A stretch of 53,784 nucleotides of DNA from Elusimicrobiales bacterium (GTDB taxonomy: Bacteria > Elusimicrobiota > Elusimicrobia > Elusimicrobiales > UBA9959), in assembly GCA_049972095.1 (NCBI GenBank), contig JBMFKQ010000006.1, positions 1-53,784 on the forward strand, given 5' to 3'. The translations under genes were made by a program, and so were the position numbers. The notes beneath the pieces were generated by a model, which made no database searches, was not told where the DNA came from, and saw only the letters and a list, made by a program, of their open reading frames with translations. This document shows positions 19,987 through 25,458 of the stretch, piece by piece. How positions within the stretch are numbered: the stretch's first letter is position 1; the number at the start of each line of letters is the position of its first letter.

Positions 19987-20976
19987 ATGAATATTCTTAT
20001 ACTTAATTTCAACGAATGCCCTGAAAATTATCATCTTGAGGCTGTATTTTCAGAAATACTTTTGAAAGTTGATATTCCTTTCTATATCATACACTCATTT
20101 AATCATGACTATTCACATTTATCTGAAGGAAGAATTAAAAAAAGACAGCATATATCCAGAGTTTCACTTAAAAATCTTTTTAAACAGGGCTTCAACCTTC
20201 TTATATCCATAGACTTTCCATGGAAAAGAAACAGAAACTATCTTGCCTATATCAAAATAATAAAAGAGATTAAATGCAAAAAAATAATTATAGCAAACCA
20301 TCTTTGTCCTGATCCTGGTCAGTCAGCATTCATTGATGACTCAAAGGAAAGAGGACTTTTAAATCTATTTCAAACACTCTACATACTTGAATATGATGAT
20401 GATAAATTATGGCCAGCTAAATCAGTTATTATAAAAAAGAGAAAATTTGCTGTTGACACTGACTATTACAGACCTATTAATGTGGGAAAAAAATACGATA
20501 TACTTTGTTTTGGTTCAAAATCAAGAGCATTTGATATGCTGCAAGAACTCTCCTATAAATATTCAGTTGCAGTGCTTACATCACTAAACATAAAAATACC
20601 AAACCTCATTATAATGAAATTCAACGAAAACTTATTTAAAGTAAGAGATATAATAAACTCAAGCCGCCTTGTTGTAGCACCTGTAAATGAGAGTGAGATA
20701 AATCCAGCCTGTGGAAATACTGCGCTTTTTCTTGCCATGGCATGTGGTATTCCAGCCGTTGTAAGAGCTACGAACTATATGAAAAGATATGTAAAAGACG
20801 GTGTTAACTCATTTCTCTACAAAACACCAAATGATTTCTTAAAAAAGGTTATCTCAGCATTTGAAAAAACAAAAAAACTTGAAGTAATCTCAAAAAATGC
20901 AAGGGAAACAGCAATAGAAGATGCATCTATGAAAAAGATCATAAAATATATATTAGAAGAGGAGATCAAATGTTAG
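19987..20976 (+). CDS. GT-B (GT4-like) glycosyltransferase
   Basis: C-terminal AVDTDYY and LAMACGIPAV...YVKDGVN pattern. Confidence 0.65.
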   Translation: MNILILNFNECPENYHLEAVFSEILLKVDIPFYIIHSFNHDYSHLSEGRIKKRQHISRVSLKNLFKQGFNLLISIDFPWKRNRNYLAYIKIIKEIKCKKIIIANHLCPDPGQSAFIDDSKERGLLNLFQTLYILEYDDDKLWPAKSVIIKKRKFAVDTDYYRPINVGKKYDILCFGSKSRAFDMLQELSYKYSVAVLTSLNIKIPNLIIMKFNENLFKVRDIINSSRLVVAPVNESEINPACGNTALFLAMACGIPAVVRATNYMKRYVKDGVNSFLYKTPNDFLKKVISAFEKTKKLEVISKNARETAIEDASMKKIIKYILEEEIKC

Positions 20977-21821
20977 GTATGATTTTTATACCGTTAATAC
21001 TGAATGCCTTAGACTATACAATAATAAATGGAAAAAAGGAAATAACAATGGATACCTTTAGAAAAATGCTTCATAGATCTGATATCGTCTATATAGGCGA
21101 AACCCACACGAGCACTTTTTCTCATTCAGTGCAGCTTGAGGTAATAAGAATGATGTATGAAAAAAATAAAAAAATCTGTGTTGGGTTTGAGATGCTTAAT
21201 AAAACCCTTCAGCCATGGCTTGACAAATACCTGACAGGTGAGATAAGCGAGGATGAATTTTTAAACGGCATAAACTGGGAGAAGGAATGGGGATTTGATT
21301 TCTCACTATACAGACCAATATTTAGCTTTGTAAAGGATAGCAAACTCAAGGCTCTTGCATTAAATCTTCCAAGAAGAGTAGTTTCAAAGGTTGCAAGAGG
21401 CGGGATTGATGCTTTAAGCGAGGATGAGAAAAAACTCATGGCTAAAAATATTAAAGTTAATAAAAACAGAAGATATAAAAAATACCTTGAAAACACATTC
21501 TATACAGGTGATGAAAATCCAATGAATAAAATTATGACATTTGAAAACTATACTCTTTCAATGGCTGTATGGAATGAAACTATGGGTGAGAGAGTTGCAG
21601 AGTTTATAAACTTAAACCCAGGATACTCCTTTGTTGTAATTGCAGGAAATGGACATATAATCTACAATGCTGCAATCCCCTGGTCGGTTAGAAAAAGGAC
21701 AAAGAAACTCAAACACCTATCAATATACACAGCTGAGGAAAATGAGATACAAAACTCAAAAGATTATTATAAATGGGCTGATATAATAGTTGTAAAAAAA
21801 TCAACCACTCATATCAGATAA
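20970..21821 (+). CDS. ChaN/PhuW-like exported protein
   Basis: Signal peptide; YIGETH, GFEM, YRPIF, WNETM and IAGNGH motifs. Confidence 0.8.
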   Translation: MLGMIFIPLILNALDYTIINGKKEITMDTFRKMLHRSDIVYIGETHTSTFSHSVQLEVIRMMYEKNKKICVGFEMLNKTLQPWLDKYLTGEISEDEFLNGINWEKEWGFDFSLYRPIFSFVKDSKLKALALNLPRRVVSKVARGGIDALSEDEKKLMAKNIKVNKNRRYKKYLENTFYTGDENPMNKIMTFENYTLSMAVWNETMGERVAEFINLNPGYSFVVIAGNGHIIYNAAIPWSVRKRTKKLKHLSIYTAEENEIQNSKDYYKWADIIVVKKSTTHIR

Positions 21822-21871: not shown

Positions 21872-21880
21872 TGATATAAT
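21872..21880 (+). promoter_or_regulatory. Extended -10 promoter (TGATATAAT) of the RiPP-like operon, probably leaderless
   Basis: TGnTATAAT lies 6 nt before ATG 21887, with no SD. Confidence 0.6.
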
Positions 21881-21886
21881 TTTTAT

Positions 21887-22141
21887 ATGAGAATATCTCC
21901 AAGAATAATATGGCGCCAGATAGATGGTGAGGTGTTTGTAATTGATCCCCTAAATGAAAAAATTTATGAGATGAACGAGACAGCATCTTTTGTGTTTAAA
22001 ATGATAAAAAAAGGTTTAGATATTGAGAGAATCGTAAAGAAAATGATTGATTGCTATGATGTTAAAGAGGATAAATGTAGAGATGATGTTTTGGAGATAA
22101 TAGAATATCTTTTAAGAAATGAGGTAATAGATGAAGAATAA
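21887..22141 (+). CDS. PqqD-family RiPP recognition element (RRE) protein
   Basis: 84 aa: WRQIDGEVFVID...YEMNETASFVF...YDV...CRDDVLEIIEYL, a PqqD-like pattern. Next to a radical SAM/SPASM gene. Confidence 0.85.
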   Translation: MRISPRIIWRQIDGEVFVIDPLNEKIYEMNETASFVFKMIKKGLDIERIVKKMIDCYDVKEDKCRDDVLEIIEYLLRNEVIDEE

Positions 22142-22268
22142 AAAAAAGTATATAAAACCTAAGATTAAGGCACAAAAAATTTTTGAAACTGCTGCCTTGG
22201 CATGTGGAAAGTGTCTATCAGGTCCTATAAATCAGCTCGCATGCCGAACCTTAAGAAGAGCCTCATAA
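22131..22268 (+). CDS. Putative RiPP precursor peptide (45 aa; not in ORF track)
   Basis: GAGGT SD at 22121-22125. Translation MKNKKKYIKPKIKAQKIFETAALACGKCLSGPINQLACRTLRRAS. Fills the gap between the RRE and peptidase genes exactly. Confidence 0.8.
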   Translation: MKNKKKYIKPKIKAQKIFETAALACGKCLSGPINQLACRTLRRAS

Positions 22269-22269
22269 A

Positions 22270-22623
22270 ATGCTAAAAGCAGCTAAACTCAAAGGTAACA
22301 GTATGAAGCCTTTTTTAAAAGATGGCGCTTTTGTTTTCTATAAAAACACAGATTATATAAGCCGCGGAGATATGGTTTTATATAGATATAAGGATAATTT
22401 ATACCTGCATAGAGTTATTGGTTTTGAAGAGGATTTTGTTATTGTTTCAAACGATGATGATATAACACCACATAAAGTAGAAAAATCAGAGATTGTTGGA
22501 AAAGCGTATTCTTTTTTAAATGGGTGTGTTGGTTATATAGCCCATATTATTATTAAAAGAGCAAGAAGGATAAGAAAGATTCTAAATGAATATTTCAGAA
22601 AAACTCTACCATATCTATTTTGA
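22270..22623 (+). CDS. S24/S26-family peptidase (signal peptidase I-like, no TM anchor)
   Basis: GNSMKPFL (catalytic Ser box), RGDMV, YLHRV and EIVGK motifs. Confidence 0.78.
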   Translation: MLKAAKLKGNSMKPFLKDGAFVFYKNTDYISRGDMVLYRYKDNLYLHRVIGFEEDFVIVSNDDDITPHKVEKSEIVGKAYSFLNGCVGYIAHIIIKRARRIRKILNEYFRKTLPYLF

Positions 22624-23650
22624 GAAAAACATTCCCATTTTAGCAAGTATAGAGCTTACAAGGCGGTGTGTTAATAGTTGCATTCACTGCTATCTTAATG
22701 AAACTCAAGAAAAGCTATCAAAATCAGATGAAGAATTATCTTTTTCTAAGATAAAAGATATATTTTTCCAGCTTAAAACTCTTGGAACAGTTTTTCTAAA
22801 TATAACTGGTGGAGAGCCTCTTTTAAGAAAAGATATAGTAAAGATAGTAAAGATTGCTGTTGAGTTTAATTTTTTAGTTAAGCTTTTCTCTTCATTAAAC
22901 TATGAGTCAAATATAATAGAAAGCCTTTATGATGTTGGGCTTAGATATATAGATGTAAGTCTTTATGGGAGAAAGGATATACATAATTTGGTAACTCGCT
23001 CTAACTCTTTCGATAAAACATTTGAAAATATAAAAAAAGCAAAAGAATTGGGTTTCAAGATCACTATAAAAACACCTGTTATGAGTCTAAATATAAATGA
23101 GATTAGATGGTTAAAAGAGTTTAGCTCTAATTATAATCTCAATTTCAAAATAGATCCAATTATCACCCCAAGAAACAATGGAGATACCTCACCTTTAAAA
23201 TACTCGATATCTAAAAATGACATTGAAAAACTTTTAGAATATGGATTAATTAACCTTGAGAATATTGATCTTGATTGCAATGCAGAGTATGTAGCCTGTG
23301 GAGCTATGAAAAGTGTTATTGCCATAGATGCCTATGGAAATGTTACTCCCTGTATTTCTTTGCCTCTTTGTATTGGAAATGTTAATGAAAACAAGATATC
23401 TGATATTTTAAAATCTAATATTGCTTGTGATGTTAGAAAAAAACTTGAAATTGAACCCAAAAAATGCATCAAGTGTAATTATAAGACTATCTGTTCAAGA
23501 TGCCCTGGAGTTTCATGGGTCTATGCTGGAAGGGTTGATTATGTATATAAACAGGCTTGTGAAATCTCTAAAAAAATTTACGAAATAAGATATTCTTCTT
23601 ACAAGAAAGAGCAAGATGAAGTAGCAGGCATAGAAACTACTCTACAATAG
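22586..23650 (+). CDS. Radical SAM/SPASM-domain peptide maturase
   Basis: CVNSCIHC, TGGEPLL and SPASM cysteines CGA...VTPC...CIKCNYKTICSRC...C. Confidence 0.88.
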   Translation: MNISEKLYHIYFEKNIPILASIELTRRCVNSCIHCYLNETQEKLSKSDEELSFSKIKDIFFQLKTLGTVFLNITGGEPLLRKDIVKIVKIAVEFNFLVKLFSSLNYESNIIESLYDVGLRYIDVSLYGRKDIHNLVTRSNSFDKTFENIKKAKELGFKITIKTPVMSLNINEIRWLKEFSSNYNLNFKIDPIITPRNNGDTSPLKYSISKNDIEKLLEYGLINLENIDLDCNAEYVACGAMKSVIAIDAYGNVTPCISLPLCIGNVNENKISDILKSNIACDVRKKLEIEPKKCIKCNYKTICSRCPGVSWVYAGRVDYVYKQACEISKKIYEIRYSSYKKEQDEVAGIETTLQ

Positions 23651-24374
23651 AAAGCTGGAAGTTTCCCCGTGTTGTTCCTATATAGAAAGCTGACTTAATT
23701 CCATACAGGCGCTTGTATGATGCAAAATCCATTATTTCTGATTCATCTTTTTTTGAGGTTATTCCAATAAGCCTCCATGGGTTTGAAACTGCTTTGAATA
23801 TATAGCTATTTTTTTTAAGCTCACTTGTCTCTATAACAGGAAGGACATATCCGCCAGGCACCATCTTTAAAAAATTTGCATATACCTCACCCTCAAGAGG
23901 CACAGCAGATATAAAAGAAACATAGTTATTCGTTTGTGGAAGCTCAAGTGAAGCTTTATATATTTCATTGAAAGCATAAACAAAAGTTTTTGAAAAATAA
24001 TTAAGAGGTGCAACAACCCTTCTTATCTCACCTGATATACTTGCTGATATCCTTATTATATCCCCCTGATAAAAAAGCATCTTTGATAGATCAATCTTTC
24101 GTGAGTAATTCATAAGCTGTGAGTCTTTCGTTTCTCTAAAAAAATCTTTAACATAAACCTTTTTTACATAACCCTCCTTCACAACAGTTTTATTATTTTG
24201 CTTTGTTTTTAAAATCACCTTTCCATCAAATGAAACCTCAAGATACAATGATATTTTTTTTAGATTATTTTCAAGATAAAGCCATATAACATCCCTCTCT
24301 TCCTCTGGAACATAGCCCTTGAGTGTAAAAGAGATTACAAAAAAACTAACGATAGCTGTTATTAGTTTTTTCAT
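23637..24374 (-). CDS. Exported hypothetical protein
   Basis: 245-aa ORF with signal peptide, translationally coupled to the DoxX gene. Confidence 0.65.
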   Translation of the reverse strand: MKKLITAIVSFFVISFTLKGYVPEEERDVIWLYLENNLKKISLYLEVSFDGKVILKTKQNNKTVVKEGYVKKVYVKDFFRETKDSQLMNYSRKIDLSKMLFYQGDIIRISASISGEIRRVVAPLNYFSKTFVYAFNEIYKASLELPQTNNYVSFISAVPLEGEVYANFLKMVPGGYVLPVIETSELKKNSYIFKAVSNPWRLIGITSKKDESEIMDFASYKRLYGIKSAFYIGTTRGNFQLSIVE

Positions 24375-24835
24375 AAACCAAATTTTTTTTCTATAAGATG
24401 ATCAAGGGAAAATTTTGAACTAAATTTATATGAAATCCACAAGAAAAAAAGCCATATAATATTAAGAAGAAACTCAACTCCTATTGGATTTGAATGCCGT
24501 GGTCCAAAACAACCACAGCTTGTTATCTCAAGCCTTCTTATTATTGCCTGAAGCAGAAGCAGTTCAAAGATAATAAAAAGCAAAATAGATGCTTTTATAA
24601 CATACCTTTCAAAAAGACCAAATATAACAAAAATTCCAAGGTAAAACTCAAACCATGGAAGAAATAAAGCAGTGTAATAAGCAATCGTCTGCCCTATAAT
24701 CTTATAGCTAAGTATTGCTGAGTAAAATGACTCAACCGGTTCTATTATTTTTACACACCCAGAATAGACAAGAACCAGACCAACCATAATCCTCATAAAA
24801 GGTGAAACATAAAAGGCTCTTTGTTTAAAGCTCAT
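24371..24835 (-). CDS. DoxX/MauE family membrane protein
   Basis: LPWFE and CGCFG motifs; about 4 TM segments. Confidence 0.85.
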   Translation of the reverse strand: MSFKQRAFYVSPFMRIMVGLVLVYSGCVKIIEPVESFYSAILSYKIIGQTIAYYTALFLPWFEFYLGIFVIFGLFERYVIKASILLFIIFELLLLQAIIRRLEITSCGCFGPRHSNPIGVEFLLNIIWLFFLWISYKFSSKFSLDHLIEKKFGL

Positions 24836-25458
24836 TTTATCACCTCTTTAAGCCTTTCAACAAGCTGATGCCCCCCAATAGCTTTTTTTCCATTTAAAAA
24901 GAATGTTGGCGTTGAATCAACACCAATCCTATCCCCTTCATTCATATCTTTTTTCACAAGATCAATTGCATTCGAAGATGAAACACAGTTTTTCATGACA
25001 TACAAATCAAGAGAAATCTTTTTAGAAAACTCCTCAAAATATTTAGTGCTATCAGTTGAATTTGACCATTTATCCCTTGTGCTAAAAAGCAGATCAGCAA
25101 ACTCCCAGAATTTCCCATACTCCTTTCCTGCACATTCAGCCCAAATTGCTGCTTTCATTGCATTTGGATGAAGATTTGTTAATGGATAATGCTTGAAGTC
25201 AACTCTTATATATGGAAAATAATCAATAAGGTCCTTTAAATAAAAATGCATTTTCTCACATGCAGGGCATGAAAAGTCAGAAAACTCATATATAACAATC
25301 TTTGCTTCCGTTCCCTTTATTTTTTGCCTGTATGACGGAGATGGCTCAAGTTTAATGCTAATATTAGAATTGTCTTCTTTTAAAAAAAGAACTATGACTG
25401 TTGATATGAATATAAGGATTGTGCCTGCAAATACTTTTATCTTTAAAACCCTACTCAT
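24832..25458 (-). CDS. DsbA-family thioredoxin-fold protein
   Basis: FSDFSCPAC, KHYPL and GVDSTPTFFLNG motifs; N-terminal anchor. Confidence 0.88.
   Translation of the reverse strand: MSRVLKIKVFAGTILIFISTVIVLFLKEDNSNISIKLEPSPSYRQKIKGTEAKIVIYEFSDFSCPACEKMHFYLKDLIDYFPYIRVDFKHYPLTNLHPNAMKAAIWAECAGKEYGKFWEFADLLFSTRDKWSNSTDSTKYFEEFSKKISLDLYVMKNCVSSSNAIDLVKKDMNEGDRIGVDSTPTFFLNGKKAIGGHQLVERLKEVIK

Follow-up and report, generated by a model that had tools for sequence, protein, structure and literature searches.

A conserved Elusimicrobiota gene cassette, probably a five-component RiPP pathway, couples LPP/lasso-type peptide recognition and processing to a radical SAM/SPASM enzyme

We analyzed a stretch of 53,784 nucleotides from an Elusimicrobiales bacterium (contig JBMFKQ010000006.1 of assembly GCA_049972095.1, called the window throughout) and found that four tightly packed plus-strand genes at positions 21,887 to 23,650 belong to a conserved cassette, which probably encodes a five-component pathway for a peptide made by ribosomes and then modified post-translationally (RiPP), the main locus of which, with four of the five components, lies in the window. 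These are a stand-alone RiPP recognition element (RRE), a 45-residue precursor peptide with three Cys, a soluble S24/S26-like putative leader peptidase and a radical S-adenosylmethionine (SAM) enzyme with a SPASM domain. The fifth is a ScmC/HprK-like, kinase-like P-loop protein encoded on another contig of the same genome (Table 1). The gene set co-occurs tightly, its peptide is under purifying selection, and its enzymes are of recognizable classes with conserved catalytic-type residues. A preliminary description of this DNA had proposed an undescribed RiPP cluster of four genes. All four open reading frames (ORFs) lie where it had placed them, and no characterized product turned up in the literature that we searched (open-licence PMC papers and bioRxiv). 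The count of four gives way to five components, and the part made up of RRE, peptidase, kinase-like protein and leader has a cousin in the linear polyphosphorylated peptide (LPP) pathway.

Peptide and enzyme are seldom found apart. Within a phylum sample of 401 Elusimicrobiota genomes, the enzyme is present in 67 (E ≤ 1e-30), the peptide in 65 (E ≤ 1e-5) and both in 63, i.e., they co-occur in 63 of the 69 genomes holding either. Four genomes have the enzyme without the peptide (G107, G127, G213 and G233) and two the peptide without the enzyme (G380 and G387, each 84% complete). One peptide copy per genome is the rule (64 of the 65 peptide-positive genomes); G322 (contigs C40 and C58) has two copies each of peptide and enzyme and is the sole such genome in the sample. 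The spread follows lineages, with 29 of 46 genomes in family f1, nine of 10 in f25, none of 118 in f2 and one of 89 in f16, and the nearest enzyme homologs with a source name (41–57% identity) come from Elusimicrobia or Elusimicrobiota.

Two sets of loci were used to examine linkage. In 30 enzyme-anchored loci with 1.5 kb flanks, the RRE is present in all 30, the peptide in 27 and the peptidase in 22, the latter two having been sought by single-sequence phmmer. A 28th peptide was spotted by eye (L008 / L073 587–718); it has no in-frame ATG, GTG or TTG start, which may reflect an unusual start codon or a sequence error. The order RRE–peptide–peptidase–radical SAM holds in 15 of 15 enzyme-anchored loci of the window's family, and the order RRE–radical SAM(–peptide–peptidase) in 14 of 14 from other families. 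The peptide-anchored set came from a scan for ALACGKC[ILQ][STA] over one genome per species (185,579 species) and comprises 61 loci, nearly all labeled Elusimicrobia or Endomicrobia, with one Armatimonadota, one Fibrobacteria and one weak Atribacter match. A record under the name Elusimicrobium minutum is among those with the cassette. Linkage at these 61 loci is 59 for the peptide, 56 for the RRE, 53 for the radical SAM enzyme, 51 for the peptidase and 47 for the ScmC-like protein. The Armatimonadota and the Fibrobacteria genome each hold the five cassette genes in partly dispersed form, with 'orphan' peptides and the other genes elsewhere. These results bear out the expectation that homologous clusters carry a conserved peptide.

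Some loci depart from the usual layout. Foreign ORFs are inserted between peptidase and enzyme at L051 (4609–5787) and L055 (4581–5759), where they encode a 392-residue P-loop protein, and between peptide and peptidase at L076 (4152–4865; 237 residues). At L035 and L048, the order ScmC–RRE–peptide–peptidase is followed by a membrane protein gene where the radical SAM gene would be expected (the rest of these genomes was not searched). In 27 of the 61 loci (e.g., L032 5763–6179), the next gene 3′ of the radical SAM enzyme encodes an Rrf2-family regulator, which is absent from that place in the window; it could regulate the cassette or reflect synteny within lineages.

The peptide has no Pfam match. 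Its small ORF goes well beyond chance, given the homologs that lie beside the enzyme and the selection on the peptide. Nei–Gojobori p-distances over 44 distinct peptide DNA sequences average 0.71 at synonymous sites (pS) and 0.16 at nonsynonymous sites (pN), a pN/pS of 0.23 overall (leader 0.19, core 0.25). Purifying selection on the peptide is strong and constrains its core as much as its leader. Residues K5, Y7, P10, K16, E19, A22, L23, C25, G26, K27, C28, P32, C38 and S45 are invariant in 27 of 27 enzyme-anchored peptides. The enzyme- and motif-anchored sets together contain 63 distinct peptide sequences, the ALACGKC residues of the motif-anchored ones being fixed by the search pattern itself.

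When 1.84 billion cluster representatives (50% identity) were searched with a profile of the peptide, it proved to belong to a wider family of 493 clusters at E ≤ 1e-3. Among the best 150 of the 493 representatives, 148 end in Ser, 135 have CGK and 49 CGKC, and the most conserved core feature is C-x6-S at the C-terminus (133 of 150). Two Cys are found in 86 of the 135 CGK peptides and three in 49. The residue preceding CGK varies in the same best 150: Ala in 76, Ser in 29, Thr in 10 and Val in eight, besides Arg, Lys, Gln, Asn and Trp. Each residue of FET is invariant or kept in at least 90% of a 34-member alignment of the two-Cys form. From these counts, the family signature is YxxP-x7-FET, x-AL-x-CGK, a later Cys and a terminal Ser, with C28 special to the Elusimicrobiota type.

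The classes assigned to the other three window proteins (a stand-alone PqqD/RRE protein, a soluble S24/S26-type peptidase and a radical SAM enzyme with a full set of SPASM Cys) are upheld by Pfam and by the conserved Cys, while none of the window cassette proteins reaches a curated NCBIfam cut-off. The RRE matches Pfam PqqD at E 3.3e-14 (53.4 bits), and its best NCBIfam model is lasso_PqqD_Bac (40.6 bits, cut-off 80). Searched against the PDB, the family profile gives TbiB1 (3.9e-16), LppB (9x8z, 2.6e-11), TfuB1 (7.4e-10) and PbaB1 (1.3e-8), with PqqD far behind (1.3e-4), which makes the RRE one of lasso-B1/LppB type. The single sequence finds PbaB1 but not LppB, and the family profile finds both.

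The peptidase matches Pfam Peptidase_S24 (E 9.9e-11) and Peptidase_S26 (E 3.4e-5); the NCBIfam matches of its family, all below cut-off, are to TIGR02228 sigpep_I_arch (49 of 52), sigpep_I_bact (24 of 52) and SipW (11 of 52). Over 52–53 distinct sequences, G9, M12, P14, G33, D34, Y38 and H47 are invariant, and R48 and D62 are kept in at least 90%. Ser11, His47 and Asp62 form a candidate catalytic triad. Position 11 is Cys in nine of 53 sequences (GGCM for GSSM: L009, L012, L022, L026, L030, L082, L085, L087 and L090), all of them from lineages with the order RRE–radical SAM–peptide–peptidase, and such a swap would keep a nucleophile. His occupies the position of the bacterial signal-peptidase Lys, which we take to be the signature of archaeal, endoplasmic reticulum and SipW enzymes and which agrees with the sigpep_I_arch and SipW matches. 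The AlphaFold model (pLDDT 94.4) has the SpsB signal peptidase, LexA and human SEC11C as its nearest folds. Ser11 lies so close to the N-terminus that there is no space for an N-terminal membrane anchor, and by eye, the C-terminal helix (residues 85–112) is basic and amphipathic. A profile search with the peptidase did not reach the Bacillota LppS among the best 120 of 230 matches; those with a named source are all from Elusimicrobia, and most sources are nameless. A complex prediction of RRE, peptidase and peptide scored 0.67, versus 0.49 with the peptidase replaced, but this score is nonspecific and was not used as evidence.

The radical SAM enzyme matches Pfam Radical_SAM (E 1.2e-18) and SPASM (E 1.6e-8). 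Its CX3CX2C motif (C28/C32/C35) is accompanied by seven more Cys (238, 256, 294, 297, 303, 306 and 325), and the radical SAM and SPASM Cys are kept in 49–59 of 59 distinct homologs. Among PDB sequences, the enzyme matches the sactisynthase SkfB best (9.6e-12); the corresponding NCBIfam model gives 67 (cut-off 300) and StsB 44 (cut-off 625), all NCBIfam maturase models being far under cut-off. An Atlas search with the enzyme returned only generic radical SAM/SPASM clusters. Scores against AhbD (84.4 bits, cut-off 500), NirJ2 (85.2, cut-off 500) and NirJ (80.2, cut-off 515) come from residues 21–182, the radical SAM core only, with no full-length match at cut-off to these heme-synthesis enzymes; the enzyme thus stands outside the AhbD/NirJ group, which the preliminary description had named as a competing assignment. 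The partial matches to AhbD, NirJ and MoaA models could suggest a non-RiPP locus, with a spurious small ORF and a radical SAM enzyme for the synthesis of heme, molybdopterin or a similar cofactor. We find this scarcely credible: these matches are confined to the radical SAM core and far under cut-off, and the reading is already contradicted by the co-occurrence of peptide and enzyme, by the selection on the peptide and by an RRE gene adjacent in every enzyme-anchored locus.

The fifth component emerged from the clustering of neighboring genes. At the 47 loci where it is linked, the ScmC-like protein (about 270 residues) is encoded directly 5′ of the RRE, often overlapping the RRE gene. At E ≤ 1e-15 a match exists in 79 of the 401 genomes, including all 63 with both peptide and enzyme. 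The gene is kept though unlinked from the cassette in the window's own genome, labeled G000, and in G060 and G154, the window's nearest relatives; the G000 copy is full-length (E 5.9e-51) and sits among unrelated neighbors. NCBIfam matches of this protein, all below cut-off, are to HprK_rel_A (23 of 26), ScmC (19 of 26) and HprK_rel_B (17 of 26). Against the ScmC cut-off of 125, the G000 protein scores 25.3, the best of five listed Elusimicrobiota-type copies 40 (L032) and the highest copy seen, the wider-family member L165, 44.1. Atlas groups the G000 protein with ScmC (PF27840) clusters, among them fusions of ScmC with radical SAM and of S24 with ScmC. R96, H112, G127, G132, K133, D149 and E150 are invariant, and the AlphaFold model (pLDDT 88.6) comes nearest to ATP-dependent phosphoenolpyruvate carboxykinase (5e-8), followed by HprK/P (7e-5 to 3e-4), at TM-scores of about 0.3–0.5.

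The two-Cys relatives of the peptide have a similar neighborhood. A metagenome scan for FETxALxCGK gave at least 603 stretches. In a set of 28 metagenome loci, each 6 kb or longer, the peptidase is present in 19, the RRE in 19, the ScmC-like protein in 18 and the enzyme in 18, usually in the order peptide–peptidase–ScmC–RRE–radical SAM. Wider-family proteins are also beneath every NCBIfam cut-off, the best partial matches of the enzyme being MftC, AhbD and NirJ2; its ScmF score is 66 (cut-off 400). A protein of about 600 residues, with no Pfam match, is often encoded beside the peptide gene or 3′ of the enzyme gene in the two-Cys family (five examples in Table 1); one query for this secreted protein in G000 found none. 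The orphan peptides of L084 and L070 adjoin a 1287-residue Fn3 protein and a 915-residue beta-propeller protein. Giant surface proteins are no regular neighbors within 4 kb of the Elusimicrobiota loci, 14 of the 61 having an ORF of at least 500 residues.

The closest characterized system is the LPP pathway of Paenibacillus alginolyticus, encoded by lppA-K-B-S-D-N (Popov et al., Nat Commun 2026, PMC13381572). It comprises a precursor, an HprK-like kinase (LppK), an RRE (LppB), a SipW-like peptidase (LppS, with S29/H68/D93), an exporter and a nucleoside triphosphate (NTP) transferase. Its leader carries the motif YxxPxVLxHQxIxFETxxS; LppS cleaves after T-1, for which LppB, F-3, E-2 and T-1 are all required, and LppK polyphosphorylates Ser3 of the core. 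The pathway is reported as restricted to Bacillota, with variable cores and an MsbA-like exporter (PMC13381572). Its main text mentions neither radical SAM enzymes nor Elusimicrobia, and in the supplements, 'Radical_SAM' is one of 834 columns of a domain matrix.

The likeness to LPP lies in the recognition and processing module. Both systems have a discrete lasso-type RRE, the cassette's profile matching the LppB structure as given above; both have an archaeal/SipW-type signal-peptidase-like leader peptidase with Ser, His and Asp, which we liken to LppS by description; and in both, the leader has YxxP followed by FET. The two may also have an HprK-like kinase in common: the ScmC-like protein of the cassette, with its PEPCK/HprK-like fold, is likened to LppK by description, although its HprK_rel matches are weak and its gene is unlinked in the window's genome. 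The systems differ in that a radical SAM/SPASM enzyme is constant in the cassette and there is none in LPP, and in that an MsbA-like exporter and an NTP transferase are not among the conserved neighbors of the cassette within 4 kb. The core is invariant and Cys-bearing in the cassette, whereas LPP cores are variable. What the cassette adds to recognition and processing of the LPP/lasso type is a radical SAM/SPASM step.

We consider the following pathway probable. The stand-alone RRE would bind the precursor through Y7-x-x-P10, as its homology to lasso B1 proteins and LppB suggests. The radical SAM/SPASM enzyme would then modify the part of the core near C25-G-K and C38, which are invariant; going by the class of the enzyme, Cys-derived thioether crosslinks, of the sacti- or ranthipeptide type, are the likeliest outcome. 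By analogy with the HprK-like kinases that act in LPP and on paeninodin-type lasso peptides, the ScmC/HprK-like protein would probably phosphorylate the invariant C-terminal Ser45. The SipW-like Ser/His/Asp peptidase, with the RRE presenting the substrate, would finally cut the leader after F18-E19-T20, as LppS does, to release a 25-residue core (AALACGKC...RRAS).

The second point of reference for this scheme is the lasso peptides. Lasso-peptide kinases are reported to carry a His-Lys-Asp-Asp motif and to phosphorylate, on the linear precursor, a C-terminal Ser that is strictly conserved (PMC9266682). Paeninodin-type systems (PadeK, ThcoK, PsmK; PMC9266682) resemble the cassette in a lasso B1-type RRE, a YxxP leader, an HprK-like kinase and a strictly conserved Ser at the C-terminus of the precursor. 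In contrast to lasso peptides, no Asn-synthetase-like cyclase or transglutaminase-like B2 protease was found beside the cassette or among its conserved neighbors (the whole genome was not searched), and in place of the cyclase and the B2 cysteine protease, the cassette encodes a radical SAM enzyme together with a serine peptidase.

Several points weigh against the proposed pathway. The thioethers, the phosphorylation and the cleavage site are all steps that we infer. Compared with LPP, the cassette has a spacing of P-x7-F-x-T rather than P-x9-F-x-[T/A]; its peptidase lacks the N-terminal helix by which LppS docks on the RRE–leader sheet, and the nucleophilic Ser stands at residue 11 instead of 29. 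Core position 3, the phosphorylated Ser of LPP, is an invariant Leu here, which shifts the kinase analogy to the C-terminal Ser, and the Pfam models for Hpr kinases do not pick up the ScmC-like protein at E ≤ 0.01, while its NCBIfam scores remain far under the cut-offs. As C28 is unconserved in the wider family, where most of the CGK peptides examined have two Cys, three thioethers are not a family feature. Lastly, the wider-family enzyme aligns with MftC over its full length at 152.6 bits (cut-off 265), and the chemistry of MftC is C-terminal decarboxylation and C–C bond formation, not thioether formation.

The MftC alignment also speaks for another reading, in which the product is intracellular or of cofactor type, as mycofactocin or pyrroloquinoline quinone (PQQ); the enzyme would act on the C-x6-S end, for example by C-terminal oxidative decarboxylation or by forming a C–C/C–S ring at Ser45, and the product would work as a redox or metal-handling factor. 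We judge this unlikely, though it accommodates that alignment along with the prevalent C-x6-S end, a core conserved like the leader, the single peptide copy, a gene order that follows lineage and the lack of an exporter or immunity gene within 4 kb. The window enzyme itself reaches just 55.3 bits with the MftC model (cut-off 265) and 78.1 bits with PqqE (cut-off 381). The 61 loci show no linked gene for a dehydrogenase or another user of cofactors, and having its own leader peptidase and a kinase-like protein is typical of a pathway to a peptide product. Moreover, related cassettes in other phyla adjoin large secreted proteins, which suggests an extracellular role. With mycofactocin (MftA/B/C) and PQQ (PqqA/D/E), the cassette shares a small conserved precursor, a PqqD-type chaperone, a radical SAM/SPASM enzyme, a conserved core and the absence of an exporter, but the cassette precursor has neither GVY nor E-x3-Y and ends in RRAS, the enzyme is under the cut-offs of those families, and the peptidase and kinase-like protein take the place of their downstream enzymes.

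As the product of the five-component pathway, a conserved factor with a physiological role seems likelier than a bacteriocin that evolves fast, since no exporter or immunity gene is linked, the core is conserved like the leader, gene order is lineage-wise and the peptide is single-copy. RiPPs of cofactor-like or housekeeping kind (PQQ, mycofactocin, SCIFF) likewise combine a conserved core with the lack of a linked exporter, and that group has been a repeated source of new chemistry and physiology. The absence of a transporter had been noted in the preliminary description, and we likewise found no transporter gene within or adjoining the cassette.

The radical SAM step also invites comparison with sacti- and ranthipeptides (SkfB, AlbA, StsB, SCIFF), with which the cassette shares a full-SPASM enzyme, an RRE and a Cys-bearing core. 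An ordinary cluster of this kind would form thioethers and be cut at A22-L23-A24 | C25, leaving a 21-residue Cys-first core, and the ScmC-like protein would not act on the peptide. We consider it quite improbable. A22-L-A24 is a textbook AxA site, position 24 being Ala in 61 and Ser in two of the 63 distinct peptides (with ALACGKC fixed in the motif-anchored set), and the best PDB relative of the enzyme is a sactisynthase. In contrast to those systems, the cassette RRE is a separate protein and not an N-terminal domain of the enzyme, and the enzyme belongs to no curated maturase family by NCBIfam cut-offs. To our knowledge, kinase-like and signal-peptidase-like proteins are absent from known sacti- and ranthipeptide clusters. 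Against an ordinary cluster stands the ScmC-like gene, which is retained in all genomes with both peptide and enzyme and usually overlaps the RRE gene. The variable residue preceding CGK in the wider family is also ill-suited to a −1 specificity pocket. Cleavage after FET is preferred because FET is near-invariant, that residue is variable and LppS cuts after FET (PMC13381572); the cut at A22-L-A24 | C25 was our first idea and was downgraded on the LPP precedent and on the same variable residue.

Cassettes of this kind had been said to be noted bioinformatically, and six family members indeed appear in the supplement of PMC10288494 (2023), which lists the peptides and their enzymes among predicted sacti- and ranthipeptide precursors as 'Other Uncharacterized', in group 16 of a precursor sequence similarity network. 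That paper predicts the precursors of its six new uncharacterized groups to be sactisynthase substrates, which would favor an ordinary sactipeptide if group 16 is one of the six. Searches of open-licence PMC papers and bioRxiv for work on Elusimicrobia radical SAM RiPPs, SynChlorMet, ScmC with radical SAM, or HPr kinase with PqqD cassettes found none; on the cassette itself, the 2023 data set was the sole match.

SynChlorMet (SCM), which is known to us here from its NCBIfam models alone (TIGR04248–04251: ScmC, ScmD, ScmE, ScmF), is alike in having an ScmC-family P-loop protein, a PqqD-like protein and a radical SAM/SPASM enzyme. No SCM cut-off is reached (the window proteins score 17.7 vs. 100 for ScmD and 52 vs. 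400 for ScmE), and the cassette has one radical SAM enzyme where SCM has two.

A bolder possibility, to which we give a small but real chance, is that the cassette and its two-Cys relatives are an unrecognized and very widespread RiPP class in which the kinase activates the C-terminal Ser and the radical SAM enzyme then crosslinks through CGK/C-x6-S. If so, the product might contain a C-terminal Cys38–Ser45 macrocycle or a Cys–Lys link within CGK, two chemical steps never seen together would be combined, and the role in Elusimicrobiota would be a conserved physiological one, such as that of a cofactor, a metal-handling peptide or an envelope-associated factor, not that of an antibiotic.

The system is small, with five genes and a 45-residue substrate, and is inherited along the lineages of a poorly studied phylum, its two-Cys version being abundant in environmental metagenomes. 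RiPP pathways in which the leader peptidase is signal-peptidase-like were not characterized until 2026, and then in Bacillota and without a radical SAM step.

Table 1. Positions of the cassette genes, their proposed parts and other features; positions are those of the window unless another contig or locus is named.
Feature	Position	Strand	Description
RRE (PqqD family, lasso-B1/LppB type, stand-alone)	21887–22141	+	84 residues; Pfam PqqD
Precursor peptide gene	22131–22268	+	45 residues; Cys 25, 28, 38; 11-nt overlap with the RRE stop
Proposed leader, residues 1–20	22131–22190	+	Basic N-terminus, Y7-x-x-P10, F18-E19-T20
Proposed core, residues 21–45	22191–22265	+	AAL-A-C25-G-K-C28 ... C38-x6-S45; sequence AALACGKC...RRAS
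S24/S26-like putative leader peptidase, soluble	22270–22623	+	117 residues; begins 2 nt past the peptide stop
Radical SAM/SPASM enzyme	22586–23650	+	354 residues; 38-nt overlap with the peptidase gene
Extended −10-like motif TGATATAAT	21872–21880	+	6 nt 5′ of the RRE ATG; consensus match
Further copy of the motif	21779–21787		
ScmC/HprK-like P-loop kinase-like protein	G000:C10:36201–36968	−	Other contig of the window's genome
GT4-type glycosyltransferase and ChaN-like genes	19987–21821	+	Directly 5′ of the cassette
245-residue, MauE/DoxX-like and DsbA/thioredoxin-like genes	23637–25458	−	Co-directional, converging on the cassette
Protein of about 600 residues, L103	5300–7132		
Protein of about 600 residues, L135	8127–10025		
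Protein of about 600 residues, L102	995–2758		
Protein of about 600 residues, L123	5277–7169		
Protein of about 600 residues, L121	5521–7368		

The preliminary description had also given the cassette an extended −10 promoter of its own. The motif TGATATAAT is present, as a consensus match. As a candidate promoter, it would, if used, yield a leaderless or nearly leaderless RRE mRNA. The pattern TGNTATAAT has 12 matches in the whole window versus 5.0 expected, a number that 0 of 100 shuffles reach, and this excess hints at a frequent use of extended −10 promoters by the host organism. A generic promoter scan of the window gave 13 sites versus 15.9 in shuffles, i.e., no excess. By eye, a GAGG Shine–Dalgarno-like motif precedes the peptide gene and is the clearest among the four genes.

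The genes flanking the cassette in the window were considered as cluster members and rejected, since none of eight (GT4, ChaN-like, 245-residue, MauE-like, DsbA-like, DUF374, RecA and GpmI) is conserved near the peptide in the 61 loci. Upstream, the ChaN-like gene encodes a haem-binding protein (Cofac_haem_bdg, E 1.4e-56). On the other side, the 245-residue protein has a signal-peptide-like N-terminus and no Pfam match, and its gene shares 14 nt with the radical SAM gene at the 3′ end of the latter; together with the MauE/DoxX-like membrane protein and the DsbA/thioredoxin-like protein, it makes up a trio that looks like a disulfide-formation module.

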